32,000 nt of DNA from an uncultured Bacteriovoracaceae bacterium. GTDB taxonomy: Bacteria > Bdellovibrionota > Bacteriovoracia > Bacteriovoracales > Bacteriovoracaceae. A program made the translations under genes and the position numbers. The notes below the pieces were generated by a model. That model did no database searches, had not been told where the DNA came from, and worked only from the letters and a program-made list of their open reading frames with translations. The stretch lies in assembly GCA_964012805.1 (NCBI GenBank), contig CAXGUD010000001.1, positions 822 to 32,821 on the forward strand, in the 5' to 3' direction. Shown one piece after another: positions 13,378 through 30,848 of the stretch; within the stretch, counting starts at the first letter, position 1, and each line of letters starts with the position of its first letter.

Positions 13378-15186
13378 ATGAGGCTTAATTTAAAATTAAA
13401 ATATTTATGGATCTTCTTAATTTTTCTTCTCTTCAGCGGGCCTAAAGGTGCTTTTACACAAGAAGCATCTCTTATGAGGAACCAACTTCAGCTCGAAAGT
13501 GAACTTAATTCACAAGTAAGAAAAGAGCTCCTCCAAGTTTTCAAAAAAGAGGAATTTATTATCTCTTCCTCTATAAAATTAAAAAGTTACAGAGTTACAA
13601 AAGTTCTGGAACAAGAAAGCCAAATAAACAAACAACCTAAAAAAAAGGGAAGTGAGCAAGAAATACTGCCAGGTTTTTACGATTCTGCCCCCTCAATAAC
13701 AAACGAAATGGCCAATGAACAAGTAAGAAAAGTATATGGCCACGAAACAAAAACTGAATTAGAAAAGGCCCAATTGAAGATTTTAGTCGATGAAAGCGTA
13801 ACAGATACCAGGCTTGACGCAGCAAAAAAATTACTCACTCAAAGGTTAACAAATAGCTTTGGAGGAAAAATTGACATCCAATTCCTCCCAGCTGTCCTCA
13901 AATCAAAATTAGCACCAGTTCCTTTTTACCAAGAGTTTACTGGATACCTAAAGGATAATATGGGACTGCTTCTCCTGTTTTTTTGTTCACTTATCTTTCT
14001 TTTTGTCCTTGCTTCTTTAATCAACCGTATAAGGCCAAAAGATCAAATGCCTCCGGTTTGGTCATATAACCCACCTATGACACCCCCAATAGATTCAATG
14101 GGAGGCTTTGGTGGCCCCCCTCCTCTTCCTGGAGGAGGTCAAAGACCTCATATAGAATTAGGCCCCAACACTCTTCCCCTACCAGGAAGTCATGAAAAAG
14201 AACTTGATGAATTAGAAATAGACAAAAAAATAAACAAATTTGTTAGCGTTATATGCAAAGAACCTTTTGTCACAAGAAAGTTTTTTCAGACCCTTGATAG
14301 AGATAATCAAAAAAGCTTTATGGCGCTTTTTACAAGTAAGAGTTCAAAAGTGGCGCTTGGAGAATTTTTTGGAGAAACACTTTTAGGACCAGAAGCAGGC
14401 GATATTGCCAGTCTGGACAATGAGATGGACCTTGAGGAAAAAGCCGAATTTTTAGAGTTTATCTCTCTAGAACATGATAGATTTAAAAACCTTATGGCCA
14501 TCAAAAATGGCCAGCGTTTTTCTATTTTATCTCTTATGAATGATAAGGAACTTCAATACGTCTTTTCGAATGAGTCCCCCAGAGATATTGCTTTTCTCCT
14601 TCACTTTCTTCCAAGAGACTCCATTTCTGGTGTTTTAAGCAGGATGGATAGCGAACAGAAAACTGAAATTATTTTAAACTTGAAAAAGTCCTCTCAATTA
14701 TCAGGAGAAGATGAAAGAGAAATTGAAGAAAGGCTTAATAAAAAAATTAATACTTTTGCCTCAAGCGCTTTTTCAACTTTCATGAGTGAAGACTCCTTAG
14801 TTGGAAGTATCTTAGATGAGTCCGATAATGCCCAAGAAATTTTAGATAGAATATCAAGTAAAGATAAAAACCTTGCTAAAAGCTTCAAATCCCACTCATT
14901 AAACTTTGATTATTTTATAGAAAATGAATTGGACTCTCTTGCAAGAATTTTTGAAACAATACCAAATGAAATGTTGGCCTTAAGCCTTATCGAATATGGT
15001 AAAGATGAAAGATCAACAATTTTAGAAGCACTTTCCCCCACAAGGAGAAAAGTCATCGCTTCTTCAATGCTCATGAACTCAAAAGCATCACACGAAGAAA
15101 TAAGAAAAGCCAAATTAGAGTCATCTAAGATTGCTCGGAAAACCTATCAATTATTACAAAGAAATAAAATGGGTAAGGCATCATGA
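13378..15186 (+). CDS. membrane-anchored FliG-like protein (periplasmic FliF/YscJ-like region, TM, Pro/Gly linker, FliG middle and C domains)
   Basis: Signal/TM at aa 1-27 and a second TM near aa 195-216. PPPLPGGG-rich linker. ESPRDIAFLLHFLPRDSISGVLSRM resembles FliG EHPQTIALILSYL. IPNEMLALSLIEYGKDERSTILEALSPTRRKVIASSM resembles the FliG C-domain pattern. Confidence 0.6.
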   Translation: MRLNLKLKYLWIFLIFLLFSGPKGAFTQEASLMRNQLQLESELNSQVRKELLQVFKKEEFIISSSIKLKSYRVTKVLEQESQINKQPKKKGSEQEILPGFYDSAPSITNEMANEQVRKVYGHETKTELEKAQLKILVDESVTDTRLDAAKKLLTQRLTNSFGGKIDIQFLPAVLKSKLAPVPFYQEFTGYLKDNMGLLLLFFCSLIFLFVLASLINRIRPKDQMPPVWSYNPPMTPPIDSMGGFGGPPPLPGGGQRPHIELGPNTLPLPGSHEKELDELEIDKKINKFVSVICKEPFVTRKFFQTLDRDNQKSFMALFTSKSSKVALGEFFGETLLGPEAGDIASLDNEMDLEEKAEFLEFISLEHDRFKNLMAIKNGQRFSILSLMNDKELQYVFSNESPRDIAFLLHFLPRDSISGVLSRMDSEQKTEIILNLKKSSQLSGEDEREIEERLNKKINTFASSAFSTFMSEDSLVGSILDESDNAQEILDRISSKDKNLAKSFKSHSLNFDYFIENELDSLARIFETIPNEMLALSLIEYGKDERSTILEALSPTRRKVIASSMLMNSKASHEEIRKAKLESSKIARKTYQLLQRNKMGKAS

Positions 15187-24509: not shown

Positions 24510-25928
24510 TTGAGAATATTATTTTATTTTTTTCTCTTAATTTTCATTTTGATTCCAAAAACATATGCCATTCAGTCTCATTATGTTTGGGTCAAACATC
24601 CCTCCAAACTTAAGGGTGATTGCTATGAGGTAGACACAGAAACAGGTGGAAAAAAATACTCTAATAAGGTCAATAAAAAAATCTGTAGACCGGCCAACAC
24701 CATTCATTTTTGGATTGGAGAAAAAGAGAAACTGAGAGGTCATTGTTATGAGTCCGACCCAGAAACAAGAGGAGAAAAATATATTAGTAAGGTACAAGCT
24801 CTTAAATGTCTTCCTAAAAGAACTGAAAAGGTATGGCTCGAAACAGAAATAAAAAGGGGCTGCTACCTCGTTGATTCCTTAACTAAAGGTGAACACTTTT
24901 TAATGAAAGTTGGAGTAGATGAATGTCAAAAGAAGCAATCTACTTACTTTCACTTTCAAGCCTTACCAAAGAAAATGAGTGGTATCTGCTTAGAGCTTGA
25001 TAGCAAAACAAACGGAAAGTTTTTTAAAAATAAAGTAAAAACTGAAAATTGCAGACCACCAAATACTAAGATCCTTTGGATTAAGAAAAAGTTAAGGCCA
25101 AATGAAGGACAATGTTACGAAGTAGATCGGGATAAGGGAGCTAATGGTTTTATCTTAAAACTACCAAGAAAATATTGTTTTAAAATGAAGAGCCATTTCG
25201 CATGGGTTTACAAAAAAGAATTTGTTGGAAACTGCTATGAATTTTCTAAAGGACCTTCAAACGAAGATATCAGTCAAAAAGTTGGAAAAGAAAAATGCAA
25301 ACCAGACCAAACTATTTTTTTGTGGGCCGGTGAGGGTTACTTGAAAGGGAAATGTTATGAAGTAGATTCGAATTTAAAAGCAAAAGGATATTCAAAAAGC
25401 GTCAATAAAAAAAAGTGCAGACCTTCTTCTTTTTTAACAAAGTGGATAAAGAAAAGGCCTAAAGAAAAGGGTTCTTGCTACGAATTGGATAATGAAACGA
25501 AAGGCTTTCAATATTCAAGAAAAGTTAATAAAAAAGAGTGCTCATCAGATACGATCTCAACTGTATGGAAACCCAATCGCGATGGCTGGGGAGGTAATTG
25601 TTCTGACTTGGTAAAGATGGAAAATGGCCAAATGATGAAGATATCAACAAAAACGGAAAAGTGTCGCCCTTTGAGGATAAAATATATTTGGAAACCAAAA
25701 AGTAGATTTGAGGGTAAGTGCTATGAAGTTGACTTTGATAAGGGGAATTTTGCCTATTCTAAGACTGTCAAAAAGGAATCGTGCAAGCCAGGTTTTAATG
25801 ATCTAAGAAACGTTTTCGTTCCAAATAGAAAAGGAAGAGGCGGAAACTGTATTCAGATTGATAAACAAACTAACGGTTATCGATATTCAAAAAAAATAAA
25901 TATTGAATTTTGTCGTTTAACTAATTAA
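24510..25928 (+). CDS. secreted protein built of 11 tandem ~41-aa two-cysteine repeats (unclassified family)
   Basis: TTG start and signal peptide MRILFYFFLLIFILIPKTYA. Repeat pattern W-x(6-9)-G-x-C-Y-E-V-D-x(3)-G-x(2)-Y-S-x-K-V-x-K-x(2)-C-[RK]-P, with 22 Cys in total. Confidence 0.75.
   Translation: MRILFYFFLLIFILIPKTYAIQSHYVWVKHPSKLKGDCYEVDTETGGKKYSNKVNKKICRPANTIHFWIGEKEKLRGHCYESDPETRGEKYISKVQALKCLPKRTEKVWLETEIKRGCYLVDSLTKGEHFLMKVGVDECQKKQSTYFHFQALPKKMSGICLELDSKTNGKFFKNKVKTENCRPPNTKILWIKKKLRPNEGQCYEVDRDKGANGFILKLPRKYCFKMKSHFAWVYKKEFVGNCYEFSKGPSNEDISQKVGKEKCKPDQTIFLWAGEGYLKGKCYEVDSNLKAKGYSKSVNKKKCRPSSFLTKWIKKRPKEKGSCYELDNETKGFQYSRKVNKKECSSDTISTVWKPNRDGWGGNCSDLVKMENGQMMKISTKTEKCRPLRIKYIWKPKSRFEGKCYEVDFDKGNFAYSKTVKKESCKPGFNDLRNVFVPNRKGRGGNCIQIDKQTNGYRYSKKINIEFCRLTN
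24576..25925 (+). repeat. array of 11 diverged ~123-bp coding repeats
   Basis: Periodicity read from the translation (units begin SHYVW, IHFW, KVW, YFHF, KILW, HFAW, IFLW, LTKW, TVW, KYIW, VFVP). The units have diverged at DNA level and are not identical copies. Confidence 0.7.
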
Positions 25929-26106
25929 AGGTGGTTACCTTTAATAACTAAAAACTCTCTTTAAAAAGACAAACCCTTTTTCTTTGTTTTTTACTACTAA
26001 ACATTTTTATTCCCAAATTCTTTTATTATTTTCTTAGTTGATTAAAATAAGACTTAGGTCTTTAATTATATAATTTAATATCTTTTCCAGACTAAAAAGG
26101 TTCAAA

Positions 26107-28200
26107 ATGATAACAAATATAATAAGAACAACTTTTATCAATGCTACGTTAATTATCTTTTGCAACATCATAGTAAATAGCTCTAAAGCAAATGATAAAT
26201 TATTTTTCGAATGGGATTATGAGAACCATCCTCAAAATATGGTAGACCGCTATACCACTGTTTTTGAAGAGTTACCTCTTGAAGGTGAAATTCAAAATCA
26301 ACCCTGGAGTGGAGATTATTGGCCTACTCAAAAAGGAGGGATCTCTTACCGTTGGTATGTCCGTAAAGCAATCCCACACGATAGCATTGAGAGGTTTGGT
26401 TATAAATTTCTAGACATGAAAAAATATCAAAAAGACTTAAAAAATAAAAAGCACCTTATAAACAGAAAAACAAAGCTGGAATTTATTAGAGATCACGGAC
26501 CAAGAGAAGGTATTAAAAAATATGAAGATTATATAAAAACAGCACCAGAAATTGTGATTGATCCCGCAGAGCTTTCTCCTGCTGAAAAGTATGATCTTTT
26601 AATGGGAGATAAAAACTGGTCTCTTACAAGAAGAGAAAGAAAACGATCAGATATTTACGACTTAATTAAAGCCCTCAAAAAAGACCCTAAAGCCAATAGA
26701 GAGAGCTTTATTCCTAGTTGGTGGGGTCTATGCCACGCATGGGCTCCGGCCACAATTCTTTATGAAAACCCAAACCCAATAGGATATTCCAATCCATTTT
26801 CAAGAGAGCCTGCCCCCATAAAGTTAAAGAATCCTTCTGGAATTGAAGTTCCCTTTGGAAGTGCCGATATCAAAGCACTTCTTACAGTCCATCTAGACAT
26901 CGCTGAGAGCACCTCGGGTTCGACAATCTTTTTAGGAAGCCGCTGTAACCTGGAATTAGAGCAGCACTTCCAATCATTCAGCCGAGGAGAAATTAGTGAA
27001 ATAGAACTCCGTGGGCTCCTTGAAAGAGAAGGCTGTAATGACACAAATGCCGGTAGTTTTCATATTACCCTAACAAACCTCATAGGCCACTATAAGACTG
27101 GTTTTATTATGGATCATGATAGAGGAAGCGAAGTCTGGAATCAAGGAATAGTATCATATAAGATTTTAGAAAATATTGATAAGCCTGTTCCAGAAAAGTT
27201 TAAGAAAAATGTTTCAAGAATTGTGTCCGTAAAAAACGAGGTCACATGGATATCAGAAATTAATCAGAGCTGGAAAAAAGTTAATCTTGCTGGAAGAAAT
27301 GGTTTTCAAAAAAGCGTTTATAATTATGAGCTTTACCTCAATCCACAAAATGAAATTATTGGAGGGACCTGGCTAGATCAAACCAACTTATCAAATAAAA
27401 ATTGGAAAGATAGACCTGATTTCCTTTGGATGAGACCAAAAATAAGTTTTTCGAAAAGTATACCTGGGCTCAGTAAAATTTATTCTAAATCAATAGGAAA
27501 AAAAGAGAAGTTAAAACCTAAAAAAGCCTGGAAGAAGGCCTTCAAAAAAATAAAATTATCTAACAAGTTTATCAGAAATACAAAAGAGTTTACCAAGAAG
27601 AAAAAAGAAGAAAAAAAGAAATACCTTCAATCATTAAGGAAAAAGTCAATAGATGCTTTTAAAAGAAGAGTCGATTTAAACAAAAAATTAAAAAAGGATT
27701 TAAAAAAGAAATTTGGTAATATTCTTTCAAAGGTAAGAAGAAGTATTTTAAAGAGAGAAAGGTCTATTATAAAACGAAGAAGTCACTTAGAAGAAAAAGA
27801 TGGAAAGGTTCTATGCCACGTCCTTTATCACACTAGTGAAGAGGATAATTATCAGGATTTCAAAGCCGAAGGGGAAGATATTCAAAGTTCCTGCAAAGCC
27901 GCCTTACAAAAGTGCGAAAATTATAAGTTTTCAAATAAAATTAAAAACGCCAAGGAGTATTGTTTAAAAGGAAAAAGTAAAGACTACCTCTATACATGTA
28001 CATACACACTCTTTGCAAACCCAGACCCAATAAACTGGCTCATTAAAAAGACCAGAACTGGCAGAAAGATGGGTACTTTTAAACACAAGGCACTTATTGA
28101 AGATGTCGCCTGTTTAAGACCAAAAAAGAACTGCGAAAAAAGAAGATTTTGGAAAAGAACCTGTAAAAAAGAGGTCAAGCGCCCTCTTATCAGGCTTTAA
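26107..28200 (+). CDS. GP42-like transglutaminase ('TGase elicitor' family) homologue with Lys-rich and Cys-rich C-terminal extension
   Basis: Signal-like N-terminus. PWSGDYWPTQKGGISYRW and SWWGLCHAWAPA (candidate catalytic Cys209). EVWNQGIVSYKILE resembles the Pep-13 peptide VWNQPVRGFKVYE of Phytophthora GP42. The C-terminus has a poly-Lys region and 11 Cys in the last ~135 aa. Confidence 0.6.
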   Translation: MITNIIRTTFINATLIIFCNIIVNSSKANDKLFFEWDYENHPQNMVDRYTTVFEELPLEGEIQNQPWSGDYWPTQKGGISYRWYVRKAIPHDSIERFGYKFLDMKKYQKDLKNKKHLINRKTKLEFIRDHGPREGIKKYEDYIKTAPEIVIDPAELSPAEKYDLLMGDKNWSLTRRERKRSDIYDLIKALKKDPKANRESFIPSWWGLCHAWAPATILYENPNPIGYSNPFSREPAPIKLKNPSGIEVPFGSADIKALLTVHLDIAESTSGSTIFLGSRCNLELEQHFQSFSRGEISEIELRGLLEREGCNDTNAGSFHITLTNLIGHYKTGFIMDHDRGSEVWNQGIVSYKILENIDKPVPEKFKKNVSRIVSVKNEVTWISEINQSWKKVNLAGRNGFQKSVYNYELYLNPQNEIIGGTWLDQTNLSNKNWKDRPDFLWMRPKISFSKSIPGLSKIYSKSIGKKEKLKPKKAWKKAFKKIKLSNKFIRNTKEFTKKKKEEKKKYLQSLRKKSIDAFKRRVDLNKKLKKDLKKKFGNILSKVRRSILKRERSIIKRRSHLEEKDGKVLCHVLYHTSEEDNYQDFKAEGEDIQSSCKAALQKCENYKFSNKIKNAKEYCLKGKSKDYLYTCTYTLFANPDPINWLIKKTRTGRKMGTFKHKALIEDVACLRPKKNCEKRRFWKRTCKKEVKRPLIRL

Positions 28201-29027: not shown

Positions 29028-30848
29028 TTGGCGGTAGATAGAAGTAATCAAAAAAAAATTTCCTTTGAAGAACTCATAAGCAATCACGGAATGGCTTCAA
29101 TTCTTGCTGTTGATGACAATCAAAAAAATATACAAGTTATTGGTCAACTTCTAAAACATGCCACTTGGTGTTCACTATCTGTTTGTTTAGAAAGTCAAAA
29201 AGCTATAAAGTTGGCTGCAAAAATCCGTCCTGACATTATTCTTTTAGACCTTCATATGCCTAAACTTAATGGTATTGATGTCTTGAAAAAATTAAATGAG
29301 ATGGAAATATTGGAAACAAGTACAGTTATATTTTTAACGGCTGACAGAGAAATTGAAAACCGTCTGGAAGGTCTATCACTTGGCTGCGCAGACTATATTC
29401 AAAAGCCATTTAATTCCGATGAATTTATTATTAAATTGAAGTACCACATAAAGATGAGGTATTATGAAAAAGAAATACTTAATACACTAAAGAACACGAA
29501 TAACCTACTGGATAATATTAATCAAGCCATTTTTTCTATTAATAAAAATGGTGAAATAATTAATCCTATCTCTAATCATTCAAAAGAAATTTTTGGTTCG
29601 AACATTGAACCTGGCATTCATATAAATTCATTCCTCCAAGGTAAATTTCAATTTTCAGAAGAGGAAATTAGATCTTTTTTAGAGCAACTTTTAAGTTCCT
29701 TTAAACAATCAAAAATAAATTGGACCGAGATAGAAAGAAGCTTTCCCAAAAAATTTTTATTAACTAGAAGTAGAGAAAAAATAAAAATACTTAAAATAAA
29801 CTACTCATCTGTTTGGAATGGTGAACAGCTTGAAAACATTATCTTTTATTTTAACGACATAACAGACAAAGAAAAGGTAGAAGATGAATCGACTAAATAT
29901 AGCCTTAGTCAAATTTCATCCCTAAGCAGCATTAACTTAGAAACCCTAAGAAGCTGGACAAAGAGGTTTCATATTAAAGGCGATTTTTCTCATGAAGAAA
30001 GTAAATTTCGCTTTTCAGGGAAAGAACTCAAAAAATTTCAGCTTTATAAGGAACTAATAGAAAAAGGGGAAAATATTGGTGCATTAGTTAAATTGAGTTA
30101 TAAGGAACTTATAAAAAGAAAAAATTTTTTGACTGAAGAAAAATCCAGACCAATAAAAATGAATGAAAGCTCAATTAAAAGTTATGATCTAGTTAACACC
30201 CTTCACTTTTTTATGACACAAAAAAAATTTGATATTTTCCAAAGAGACTTTAATAAGCTTCCCACTATTTACAATCAAAGAGAGTTAGTTTTTGATATCA
30301 TTCTTCCTTTTCTAAAATTAAGGAATAAGGATAGGTTTTGGAATAATTTTTCAGATGCAAAAAAAGACTTTTTAAATTTCTACCTTATAAAAAAAATAAT
30401 AGAGTTTGCTGTACCTAAAAAAAGTATTCCCATAAATGAGGTTAAAAAAATATTTTTACTGGACTTTTTTCCCTCAAACACATCTTTAACTTGTCCCATT
30501 CTTTTACTTTTAGCTTCTTACCATAATTTTGAAACTTATTATATAAAAGAAAATATACTTAACCCTTCTTTTTTAAAAATATTGAAAGAAGAAAAAGATT
30601 CAATAATTTTTCTTAATTTAGATAAGAAAGGATCTTTTGATGAAACAGAGTTCAATGCAATAAACAAAGACATCCTTAACTCGTCTGCGTTAAAAAAGGC
30701 AGAAGTAATTCTCTTCAATAACCACCCCACAATCAAAATTGATAATGAAAAGAACCTTCACCTTAATGTTATTAATTCCTTTGAAGACGTTGACCAATTT
30801 TTTATAGACCTATCAAATGAAAAAGCGAAAATCAAAAGTGCAGCTTAG
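29028..30848 (+). CDS. response regulator with REC, PAS-like, MerR-type HTH and an unknown C-terminal domain
   Basis: REC: ILAVDDNQ...PDIILLDLHMPKLNG...FLTA...QKPF. The PAS-like segment is paralogous to that of the kinase at 17873..20467. MerR-like HTH: YSLSQISSLSSINLETLRSWTKRFHI...FRFSGKELKKFQLYKELIEKGENIG. TTG start after GGGGGT. Confidence 0.7.
   Translation: MAVDRSNQKKISFEELISNHGMASILAVDDNQKNIQVIGQLLKHATWCSLSVCLESQKAIKLAAKIRPDIILLDLHMPKLNGIDVLKKLNEMEILETSTVIFLTADREIENRLEGLSLGCADYIQKPFNSDEFIIKLKYHIKMRYYEKEILNTLKNTNNLLDNINQAIFSINKNGEIINPISNHSKEIFGSNIEPGIHINSFLQGKFQFSEEEIRSFLEQLLSSFKQSKINWTEIERSFPKKFLLTRSREKIKILKINYSSVWNGEQLENIIFYFNDITDKEKVEDESTKYSLSQISSLSSINLETLRSWTKRFHIKGDFSHEESKFRFSGKELKKFQLYKELIEKGENIGALVKLSYKELIKRKNFLTEEKSRPIKMNESSIKSYDLVNTLHFFMTQKKFDIFQRDFNKLPTIYNQRELVFDIILPFLKLRNKDRFWNNFSDAKKDFLNFYLIKKIIEFAVPKKSIPINEVKKIFLLDFFPSNTSLTCPILLLLASYHNFETYYIKENILNPSFLKILKEEKDSIIFLNLDKKGSFDETEFNAINKDILNSSALKKAEVILFNNHPTIKIDNEKNLHLNVINSFEDVDQFFIDLSNEKAKIKSAA

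Follow-up and report, generated by a model that had tools for sequence, protein, structure and literature searches.

The closest described relative of the gene reported here encodes GP42, the transglutaminase (TGase) of the oomycete Phytophthora sojae (Protein Data Bank (PDB) entry 3TW5; Pfam family PF16683, TGase_elicitor). The active site of GP42 is an unusual papain-like one, in which the His directly follows the Cys on a helix (the 'CH' motif) and contacts either the Asp of a nearby non-core helix or the Asn of strand beta-2 (PMC10318531). Transglutaminase chemistry has been demonstrated only for this oomycete protein, the sole characterized member of the family, and the literature of 2011-2016 confined GP42 homologues to oomycetes and some Vibrio. 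Here, we describe a gene for a 697-aa member of the family (hereafter the TGase gene) on contig CAXGUD010000001.1 of an uncultured bacterium of the Bdellovibrionota; the whole stretch of DNA that was analyzed, 32,000 nucleotides in length, is referred to as the window.

The gene product is probably a Sec-exported two-module enzyme of marine Halobacteriovoraceae (Bdellovibrionota), in which a GP42-type Cys-His acyltransferase is joined to a surface-docking tail. This reading is supported by the family membership, the fold, and the intact active-site set of the catalytic domain, by export-type features, and, for the tail, by its conservation, its rarity, and its predicted fold. The assignment of the catalytic domain alone is routine; what is new is the tail, together with the wide and so far unpublished distribution of the family among Bdellovibrionota. 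The features of the gene and its catalytic part are as follows.

26107..28200, + strand: complete coding sequence, 697 aa plus stop codon.
26107..26190, + strand: predicted Sec signal peptide (residues 1-28), a hydrophobic core and then SKA/ND, read from the sequence.
26209..27486, + strand: GP42-type (PF16683, TGase_elicitor) papain-fold catalytic domain (residues ~35-460), from Pfam, profile, AlphaFold2 (AF2), and Foldseek.
26362..26547, + strand: Lys-rich helical insertion (residues 86-147; model helices 104-145).
26731..26736, + strand: catalytic Cys209-His210 'CH' dyad, at the N-terminus of helix 209-218 in the AF2 model and equivalent to GP42 Cys290-His291.
26866..26898, + strand: Asp254 and Asp264, candidate third triad members, on helix 252-267 in the AF2 model, from the alignment.
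27133..27171, + strand: VWNQGIVSYKILE, the Pep-13-homologous strand (residues 343-355), at the start of beta-strand 345-359, from the alignment and the AF2 model.

The 697-aa open reading frame (ORF) on the + strand is as first described, and the proposal in the preliminary description that it encodes a bacterial GP42 homologue was borne out by profile, fold, and active-site residues. The hidden Markov model search against the TGase_elicitor family, which had been proposed as a check, gave a match to PF16683 (E=1.1e-35, 123.5 bits against a gathering cutoff of 25); the match fell into two stretches because of the insertion at residues 86-147. No other family was matched at E<=1 in the Pfam scan, including PF01841 (Transglut_core), and the NCBIfam scan of the protein gave 0 matches. 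When all PDB sequences were searched with phmmer, 3TW5 was the sole real match (E=2.4e-19), and a profile of 68 bacterial homologues matched 3TW5 alone (E=2.1e-44). The AF2 model of residues 1-460, built from the 68-homologue alignment, had a mean predicted local distance difference test score (pLDDT) of 86.3 and a predicted template-modeling score (pTM) of 0.83, and its only significant Foldseek match in the PDB was 3tw5_A (E=3.3e-18; template-modeling score 0.69, target-normalized). By sequence and by model, the N-terminal ~460 aa are thus identified as a member of the TGase_elicitor/GP42 family, and this homology is robust. The family is very common in Bdellovibrionota, and the domain is an ordinary example of it. 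The block PWSGDYWPTQKGGISYRW, quoted in the preliminary description, lies at residues 66-83; the insertion that follows at 86-147 is absent from GP42, mostly absent from other bacterial members, and kept only in the closest subclade.

In the alignment of 120 homologues, C209, H210, D254, H319, D336, W344, N345, and D438 were 100% conserved. Their counterparts in the full 3TW5 chain (P0169) are C290 (replaced by Ser in the crystallized mutant), H291, D318, H368, D385, W393, N394, and D493, all of them identical, and D264 corresponds to GP42 D328, Asp in both. The earlier suggestion that SWWGLCHAWAPA is the catalytic-Cys block was therefore upheld, since its Cys is residue 209 (nt 26731-26733) and aligns with GP42 C290; in the alignment to GP42 that had been called for, the Cys, the His, and both candidate Asp residues (D254 and D264) match identical residues. 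N345 begins beta-strand 345-359 in the AF2 model. The whole protein has 12 Cys, and those outside the tail are C19 in the signal peptide, the catalytic C209, and C280 and C310, the last two being invariant in the bacterial alignment. A hydrophobic N-terminal segment with a small-x-small end, without a lipobox, is present in all orthologues in the alignment, suggesting Sec export of the 697-aa protein. This signal-like N-terminus, together with the eight invariant Cys of the tail described below and the invariant C280 and C310, points to an extracytoplasmic location.

The peptide VWNQGIVSYKILE had been put forward as a notable feature because of its likeness to Pep-13 (VWNQPVRGFKVYE) of Phytophthora. 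The count and coordinates given for it were correct: six of 13 positions are identical (V1, W2, N3, Q4, K10, and E13), the two sequences align column for column in the phmmer match to 3TW5, and position 5 is Gly instead of Pro. The significance attached to the match did not hold, as the number of Pep-13 identities across the 120 homologues lies between 4 and 10 and is most often 6, the value of VWNQGIVSYKILE itself; other members reach 8-10 of 13. The family motif in these homologues is V-W-N-Q-[PAG]-[VI]-x-[GSA]-[YF]; W344 and N345 are invariant family-wide, Pro5 is kept in 55 of the 120, and Gly or Ala is found at this position in the tail-bearing subclade. GP42-like proteins from environmental sequences have up to 10 of 13 identities (e.g., VWNQPVRSFKVLR in P0220). 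Trp2 and Pro5 of Pep-13 are reportedly needed for elicitor activity; in VWNQGIVSYKILE the Trp is present and the Pro is replaced by Gly, a combination that does not match the epitope. The strand (VWNQ...) is also said to be required for the transglutaminase activity of GP42. From the alignment, the Pep-13-like peptide is best described as a conserved active-site strand of the whole family and no special feature of the TGase gene.

The catalytic domain is followed by a tail of ~250 aa (residues 446-697), which is made up of three parts.

27487..27801, + strand: polycationic amphipathic-helix linker (residues ~461-565), from charge and hydrophobic moment.
27802..27975, + strand: 4-Cys unit 1, beta-beta-alpha-beta (residues 566-623; C570, C596, C603, and C619), from the alignment and AF2.
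27976..28197, + strand: 4-Cys unit 2 (residues 624-697; C631, C669, C676, and C686), with a clade-specific loop at ~640-652 and a basic C-terminus.

The tail had been described as ~230 aa with a poly-Lys stretch followed by a module with 11 Cys. The Lys richness was confirmed (60 Lys in 252 residues), but there is no homopolymer, only a ~120-aa Lys/Arg-rich amphipathic stretch, and the module has eight Cys rather than 11. The linker, measured on residues 446-565, has a net charge of +36 and a mean helical hydrophobic moment of 0.39, compared with 0.26+-0.04 in shuffled sequences. All 14 tail-bearing homologues have a positively charged linker (+15 to +36), whereas the Lys share of its basic residues varies from 0.52 to 0.79 and, in the Cys module of the homologues (including the C-terminal extension), is as low as 0.44. 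This drift indicates that charge, not Lys, is conserved, and the Lys richness of the tail is in line with the AT-rich genome.

The complete architecture of enzyme plus tail is common to the 14 homologues, down to 36% identity. In the tail alignment, the eight Cys are invariant and F585, A599, G622, L635, and G656 nearly so. Internally, the Cys module is duplicated, with C-x(25)-C-x6-C-x(15)-C as the unit and with halves that align to each other. Although only 14 sequences were available for it, the AF2 model of the module had a pLDDT of 90.3 and a pTM of 0.77 and consisted of two beta-beta-alpha-beta units, in each of which the helix bears the C-x6-C pair and the strands bear the remaining two Cys; the model thus suggests that the 4-Cys unit is stabilized by its cysteines. 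The statement that the tail has no counterpart in GP42 was confirmed and can be extended to Pfam, NCBIfam, and the PDB: the Cys module and its relatives have no Pfam match, the whole protein has none in NCBIfam, and a Foldseek search of the module against the PDB gave no significant fold (best E 0.36, a weak resemblance of a single unit to folds like those of the double-stranded RNA-binding domain (dsRBD) or HPF).

An exhaustive search of 1.84 billion representative proteins with the tail profile returned 44 matches, namely TGase fusions and ~35 small proteins that are secreted and very basic and contain the unit two to four times. The top match, P0121 (2305 aa), is a degenerate repetitive artifact matched over ~40 residues and was disregarded. 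The small proteins (P0123-P0158) are Arg-rich, carry two to four 4-Cys units and often Gly/Arg-rich C-terminal ends, and have neither a Pfam match nor an annotation. Across 89 DNA records (88 loci and the window), the 4-Cys unit was found only in TGase-fusion ORFs and in one stand-alone protein. The latter (L085, 3156-3797) lies among housekeeping genes for menaquinone and polyprenyl synthesis on a 54-kb contig. One contig carries two divergent tail-bearing paralogues, indicating that the fusion of enzyme and tail is old; in Bacteriovoracales AH-558-A13, two divergent tail-bearing copies are located ~12 kb apart (L006 and L007; contig JAOMEV010000012.1). Retention of the tail down to 36% identity, the confident AF2 fold, and the two divergent paralogues point to a folded module under selection. 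Judged from the alignment and the model, the tail is an undescribed, rare repeat with predicted disulfide stabilization.

The region after the catalytic domain was compared across the family, with the positions of accessory modules taken from the members that were scanned and the counts from the top 120 homologues. Most members are 385-450 aa in length and have no accessory module or tail. Ankyrin repeats occur in 18 of the 120 and are C-terminal in three scanned members, and the linker with the 4-Cys module occurs in 16, the subclade of the 697-aa protein. P0011 and P0015 have an MVL mannan-binding lectin domain beyond the 4-Cys module, and the same Pfam family is found in P0016. A PPC domain is present in P0206, which is GP42-like but fragmentary. 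Because other members carry lectin or ankyrin modules at their C-terminal ends, the position of the tail looks, by analogy, like a variable targeting slot, and the tail itself may be a targeting or anchoring module with a binding role.

From these results, a working mechanism can be proposed. The protein would be exported via Sec, and the cationic linker and the disulfide-stabilized units would dock the enzyme on an anionic extracytoplasmic surface, namely the envelope of the prey or of the producing cell itself, and would thereby focus cross-linking at this site. By analogy with GP42, a thioester would form when Cys209 attacks the side-chain amide of a Gln in a protein. His210 would act as the general base, held in orientation by Asn345 of the VWNQ strand and/or an Asp of helix 252-267. 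Transfer of the acyl group to a Lys epsilon-amine would then give an isopeptide cross-link. The identity of the active-site residues with those of GP42 makes such transglutaminase chemistry plausible for the 697-aa protein.

Several points weigh against this proposal. At the position of D264, 92 of the 120 bacterial members have His. No assay of a bacterial PF16683 member was found in the literature search, and a papain fold is equally compatible with a protease, an amidase, or a deamidase. The tail has no significant structural or sequence relative of known function, so its binding role rests on composition and analogy. A conserved operon partner or substrate gene was not found, the neighborhoods of P0002, P0006, and P0009 being different from one another. 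Finally, we know of no study that establishes predation for the uncultured source lineage.

Some of these points bear on a rather unlikely alternative, that the catalytic domain is a hydrolase (a protease, isopeptidase, amidase, or Gln-deamidase) used on prey and delivered to the prey surface by the tail. The papain-like fold would allow this, as Cys-His chemistry is common to proteases; the bacterial members are only ~28-36% identical to GP42, most of them with the His noted above at the position of GP42 Asp328; and the gene of one tail-bearing relative lies among genes for PI-PLC, an M4 peptidase, phospholipase D, and phospholipase A2. However, all other residues of the active site and of the Pep-13 strand that are tied to the transglutaminase activity of GP42 are conserved, and the only characterized member of the family, GP42, is a transglutaminase. 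It is improbable that the Lys-rich tail serves as the enzyme's own amine donor, with self-cross-linking to target Gln leading to covalent anchoring. Transglutaminases do use Lys epsilon-amines, and the 60 Lys of the tail would offer many of them, but the Lys share drifts among homologues, the stand-alone relatives are Arg-rich, the conserved property is charge, and the Lys content matches the AT-rich genome. Moreover, half of the tail is predicted to be a compact disulfide-bonded fold and not a flexible donor peptide. A very improbable alternative casts the tail as an inhibitory pro-region whose cleavage would release the enzyme from latency. The pro-peptides of Streptomyces transglutaminases and the N-terminal processing of the GP42 precursor are analogues of such a device, many members of 385-450 aa work without a tail, and the linker is rich in basic sites open to protease cleavage; against it, the 4-Cys unit also occurs in stand-alone secreted proteins without any enzyme, and the C-terminal lectin and ankyrin parts of other members are binding modules, not pro-peptides.

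As for the target of the two-module enzyme, the expansion of the family in a predatory phylum and the location of P0006 among lytic-enzyme genes suggest that it could be the prey envelope; a role in predation is speculation. On the P0006 contig (L003, 618-10058), a tail-bearing homologue with 42% identity is encoded among lytic enzymes that are secreted, namely PI-PLC, a thermolysin-like M4 peptidase, phospholipase D, and phospholipase A2, a cluster that is possibly a predation arsenal locus. A bolder version, that GP42-type transglutaminases are an unrecognized weapon or tool set with which predatory Bdellovibrionota cross-link the prey envelope (e.g., in bdelloplast sealing), with the 4-Cys repeat as a domain binding the prey surface (lipopolysaccharide or other envelope polyanions), appears unlikely to us in this full form. 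If the enzymes do cross-link prey envelopes, new chemistry would be added to bacterial predation. The tail repeat, which exists in TGase fusions as well as in small secreted proteins, offers a tractable candidate for a surface-binding domain of a new type.

The distribution of the family was assessed by protein and genome searches. The protein homology search, in which 8000 candidates were scored, gave at least 729 homologues, the named ones being from Halobacteriovoraceae, Bacteriovorax, Halobacteriovorax, Oligoflexia, Pseudobacteriovorax, and 'Bdellovibrionota bacterium'. The genome scan covered one genome per species and used two clade-typical motifs (W[EWF]GLCH[AG]W and similar) with tblastn confirmation; as these motifs are specific to the Bdellovibrionota-type clade, the scan is uninformative on Vibrio. 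It gave 457 tblastn-confirmed stretches, and the best 80 of the 457 come from ~51 assemblies by record names, nearly all Bdellovibrionota. Among these best 80, at least five copies were found in Halobacteriovoraceae SP87 and at least six in Bacteriovoracales AH-558-A13. In another record (L004, 8001-11015), the gene of the tail-bearing P0009 is convergent with a gene for a 382-aa domain-only TGase_elicitor protein. No paper tying the family to Bdellovibrionota, including Bdellovibrio and Halobacteriovorax, was found in literature searches. The published view of an oomycete and Vibrio family, repeated in the preliminary description, is contradicted by current sequence data, in which the family is abundant, multi-copy, and architecturally diverse in Bdellovibrionota.

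A search with the GP42 core returned oomycete proteins, one Catenaria protein, and prokaryote-type environmental proteins at 40-49% identity (P0202, P0206, P0213, P0214, P0217, P0219, and P0220), whereas proteins of the Bdellovibrionota type reached only ~32%. The Catenaria protein (P0186, from the blastocladiomycete fungus Catenaria anguillulae) is of GP42 type with 53% identity to the GP42 core, indicating that the eukaryotic distribution of GP42 is wider than oomycetes. The P0213 gene adjoins a gene for the type VI secretion system protein Hcp, and P0217 is on a 137-kb bacterial-type contig; the 'Vibrio' relatives of the 2011 paper may be among P0206, P0213, P0214, P0217, P0219, and P0220 (L086-L088) or may be superseded by them. 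In a crude neighbor-joining tree of the GP42 family, for which no named Vibrio members were identified, the oomycete sequences group with the environmental set and the 697-aa protein falls in the tail-bearing subclade within the Bdellovibrionota-type clade; of 100 bootstrap replicates, 57 supported the main split, 69 the tail-bearing clade, and 99 the environmental clade. The phylogeny proposed earlier was thus obtained in part, with the placement of the oomycetes but without named Vibrio homologues.

The environmental set is separated from GP42 by a corrected distance of 1.02 and the 697-aa protein by one of 1.63, the latter being as far from GP42 as any other Bdellovibrionota-type member. 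On these distances alone, the TGase gene is not close to any transfer route. The expectation that it would bear on the route was not supported, as the protein is ~28% identical to GP42 and belongs to a deep Bdellovibrionota-type clade, whereas the environmental proteins at 40-49% group with the oomycetes; by sequence comparison, the gene appears to have no bearing on the oomycete transfer. The idea of a recent horizontal transfer that connects oomycetes with bacteria preying on Vibrio, the Pep-13-like peptide being a functional plant-immunity epitope, has homology to GP42 and the six Pep-13 identities in its favor but is effectively refuted by the family mode of those identities, by the tree, and by the distances to GP42, and is further opposed by the Gly at Pro5, by the ordinary GC content and neighborhood of the gene, syntenic with a relative of 80% identity, and by the marine, planktonic life of the organism. 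The origin of the oomycete GP42 gene should be discussed anew with wider sampling of the family.

The gene is preceded by an intergenic region of 178 bp and by one further feature.

26097..26100, + strand: Shine-Dalgarno-like AAGG, 6 nt before the ATG, read off the sequence.

The length of the upstream region suggests that the TGase gene is probably transcribed from its own promoter; no convincing sigma-70 consensus was found for it (seven sites against 9.8 expected), and the promoter and terminator scans were uninformative. The GC content of the gene is the same as that of its surroundings, and neither a compositional nor a mobile-element sign of recent transfer was found at the gene. The window is ordinary chromosome, with an ABC transporter, FliG/MotA/MotB, a 7TMR-DISM histidine kinase, an allantoicase, and response regulators, and an Rfam search of it gave 0 matches. 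The exact 697-aa protein was found on 15 marine-metagenome contigs, including Tara Oceans, and is flanked by the same genes on each of them; the source organism is marine and planktonic. The closest species representative among the matches listed is Halobacteriovoraceae SP87, with 82% identity over the N-domain and conserved synteny, and the gene neighborhood is syntenic with this 80%-identical relative.

Upstream of the TGase gene, a 472-aa ORF (24510-25928, + strand) encodes a signal peptide and 11 tandem repeats of ~41 aa with two Cys each (W...G-x-C-Y-E-V-D-x-x-T-x-G-x-x-Y-S-x-K-V-x-K-x-x-C-x-P), for which no Pfam or NCBIfam match was found. The ORF, called as 459 aa, is also present on marine contigs with the identical TGase gene. 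It was rejected as a relative of the 4-Cys unit (hhalign probability 0.1%) and as a conserved partner or substrate, being absent at the syntenic site of SP87, where there is a 270-bp gap. Downstream, a 606-aa response regulator (29028-30848, + strand) has a receiver domain followed by a weak mid-protein MerR-type helix-turn-helix (E 3e-4, just below cutoff); its last ~250 aa have no assigned domain, and the gene is kept downstream of the TGase gene in relatives. Elsewhere in the window, an unusually long FliG-like protein of 602 aa (13378-15186, + strand) adjoins the MotA/MotB genes and has a long N-terminal extension, an MgtE_N-like domain, and then the FliG middle and C-terminal domains.

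Compared with classical transglutaminases (PF01841; Streptomyces microbial transglutaminase (MTG)), the 697-aa protein presumably has in common the Cys acyl-enzyme chemistry on protein Gln and the papain-like core, but there is no sequence match, and the triad arrangement is different, the His following directly after the Cys in the GP42 type. The small basic 4-Cys proteins of metagenomic origin (e.g., P0123, P0126, P0128, and P0132) resemble the tail in the C...C-x6-C...C unit, the G-x-F hairpin, the 'AC-x2-A-x3-C' helix, the signal peptide, and the high positive charge; they differ in having no enzyme domain and in being Arg-rich instead of Lys-rich, and the relationship is remote (E 1e-8 to 1e-3). 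With the other TGase_elicitor proteins of Bdellovibrionota (Halobacteriovorax, Bacteriovorax, Oligoflexus, Pseudobacteriovorax, and Silvanigrellaceae, all annotated 'hypothetical protein'), the 697-aa protein has in common the clade (35-42% identity), the invariant residues, and secretion, whereas those proteins are mostly domain-only or fused to ankyrin or MVL modules.

Compared with P. sojae GP42, the family, the fold, the CH dyad at a helix N-terminus, and the VWNQ strand are the same, and the equivalents of Asp318, Asp328, His368, Asp385, Asn394, and Asp493 are all identical. The two proteins differ in overall sequence (28% identity over 320 aligned columns) and in two insertions of the 697-aa protein, one helical of 62 aa (86-147) and one in a loop of 13 aa (226-238). 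C280 and C310 of the bacterial clade are missing in GP42, and Cys 256, 262, 271, 282, 305, and 527 of GP42 are at no position conserved in the bacterial family. The ~250-aa cationic Cys-rich tail and the Gly at Pep-13 position 5 are found only in the bacterial protein, which is predicted to be secreted via Sec, whereas GP42 is an oomycete cell-wall glycoprotein.

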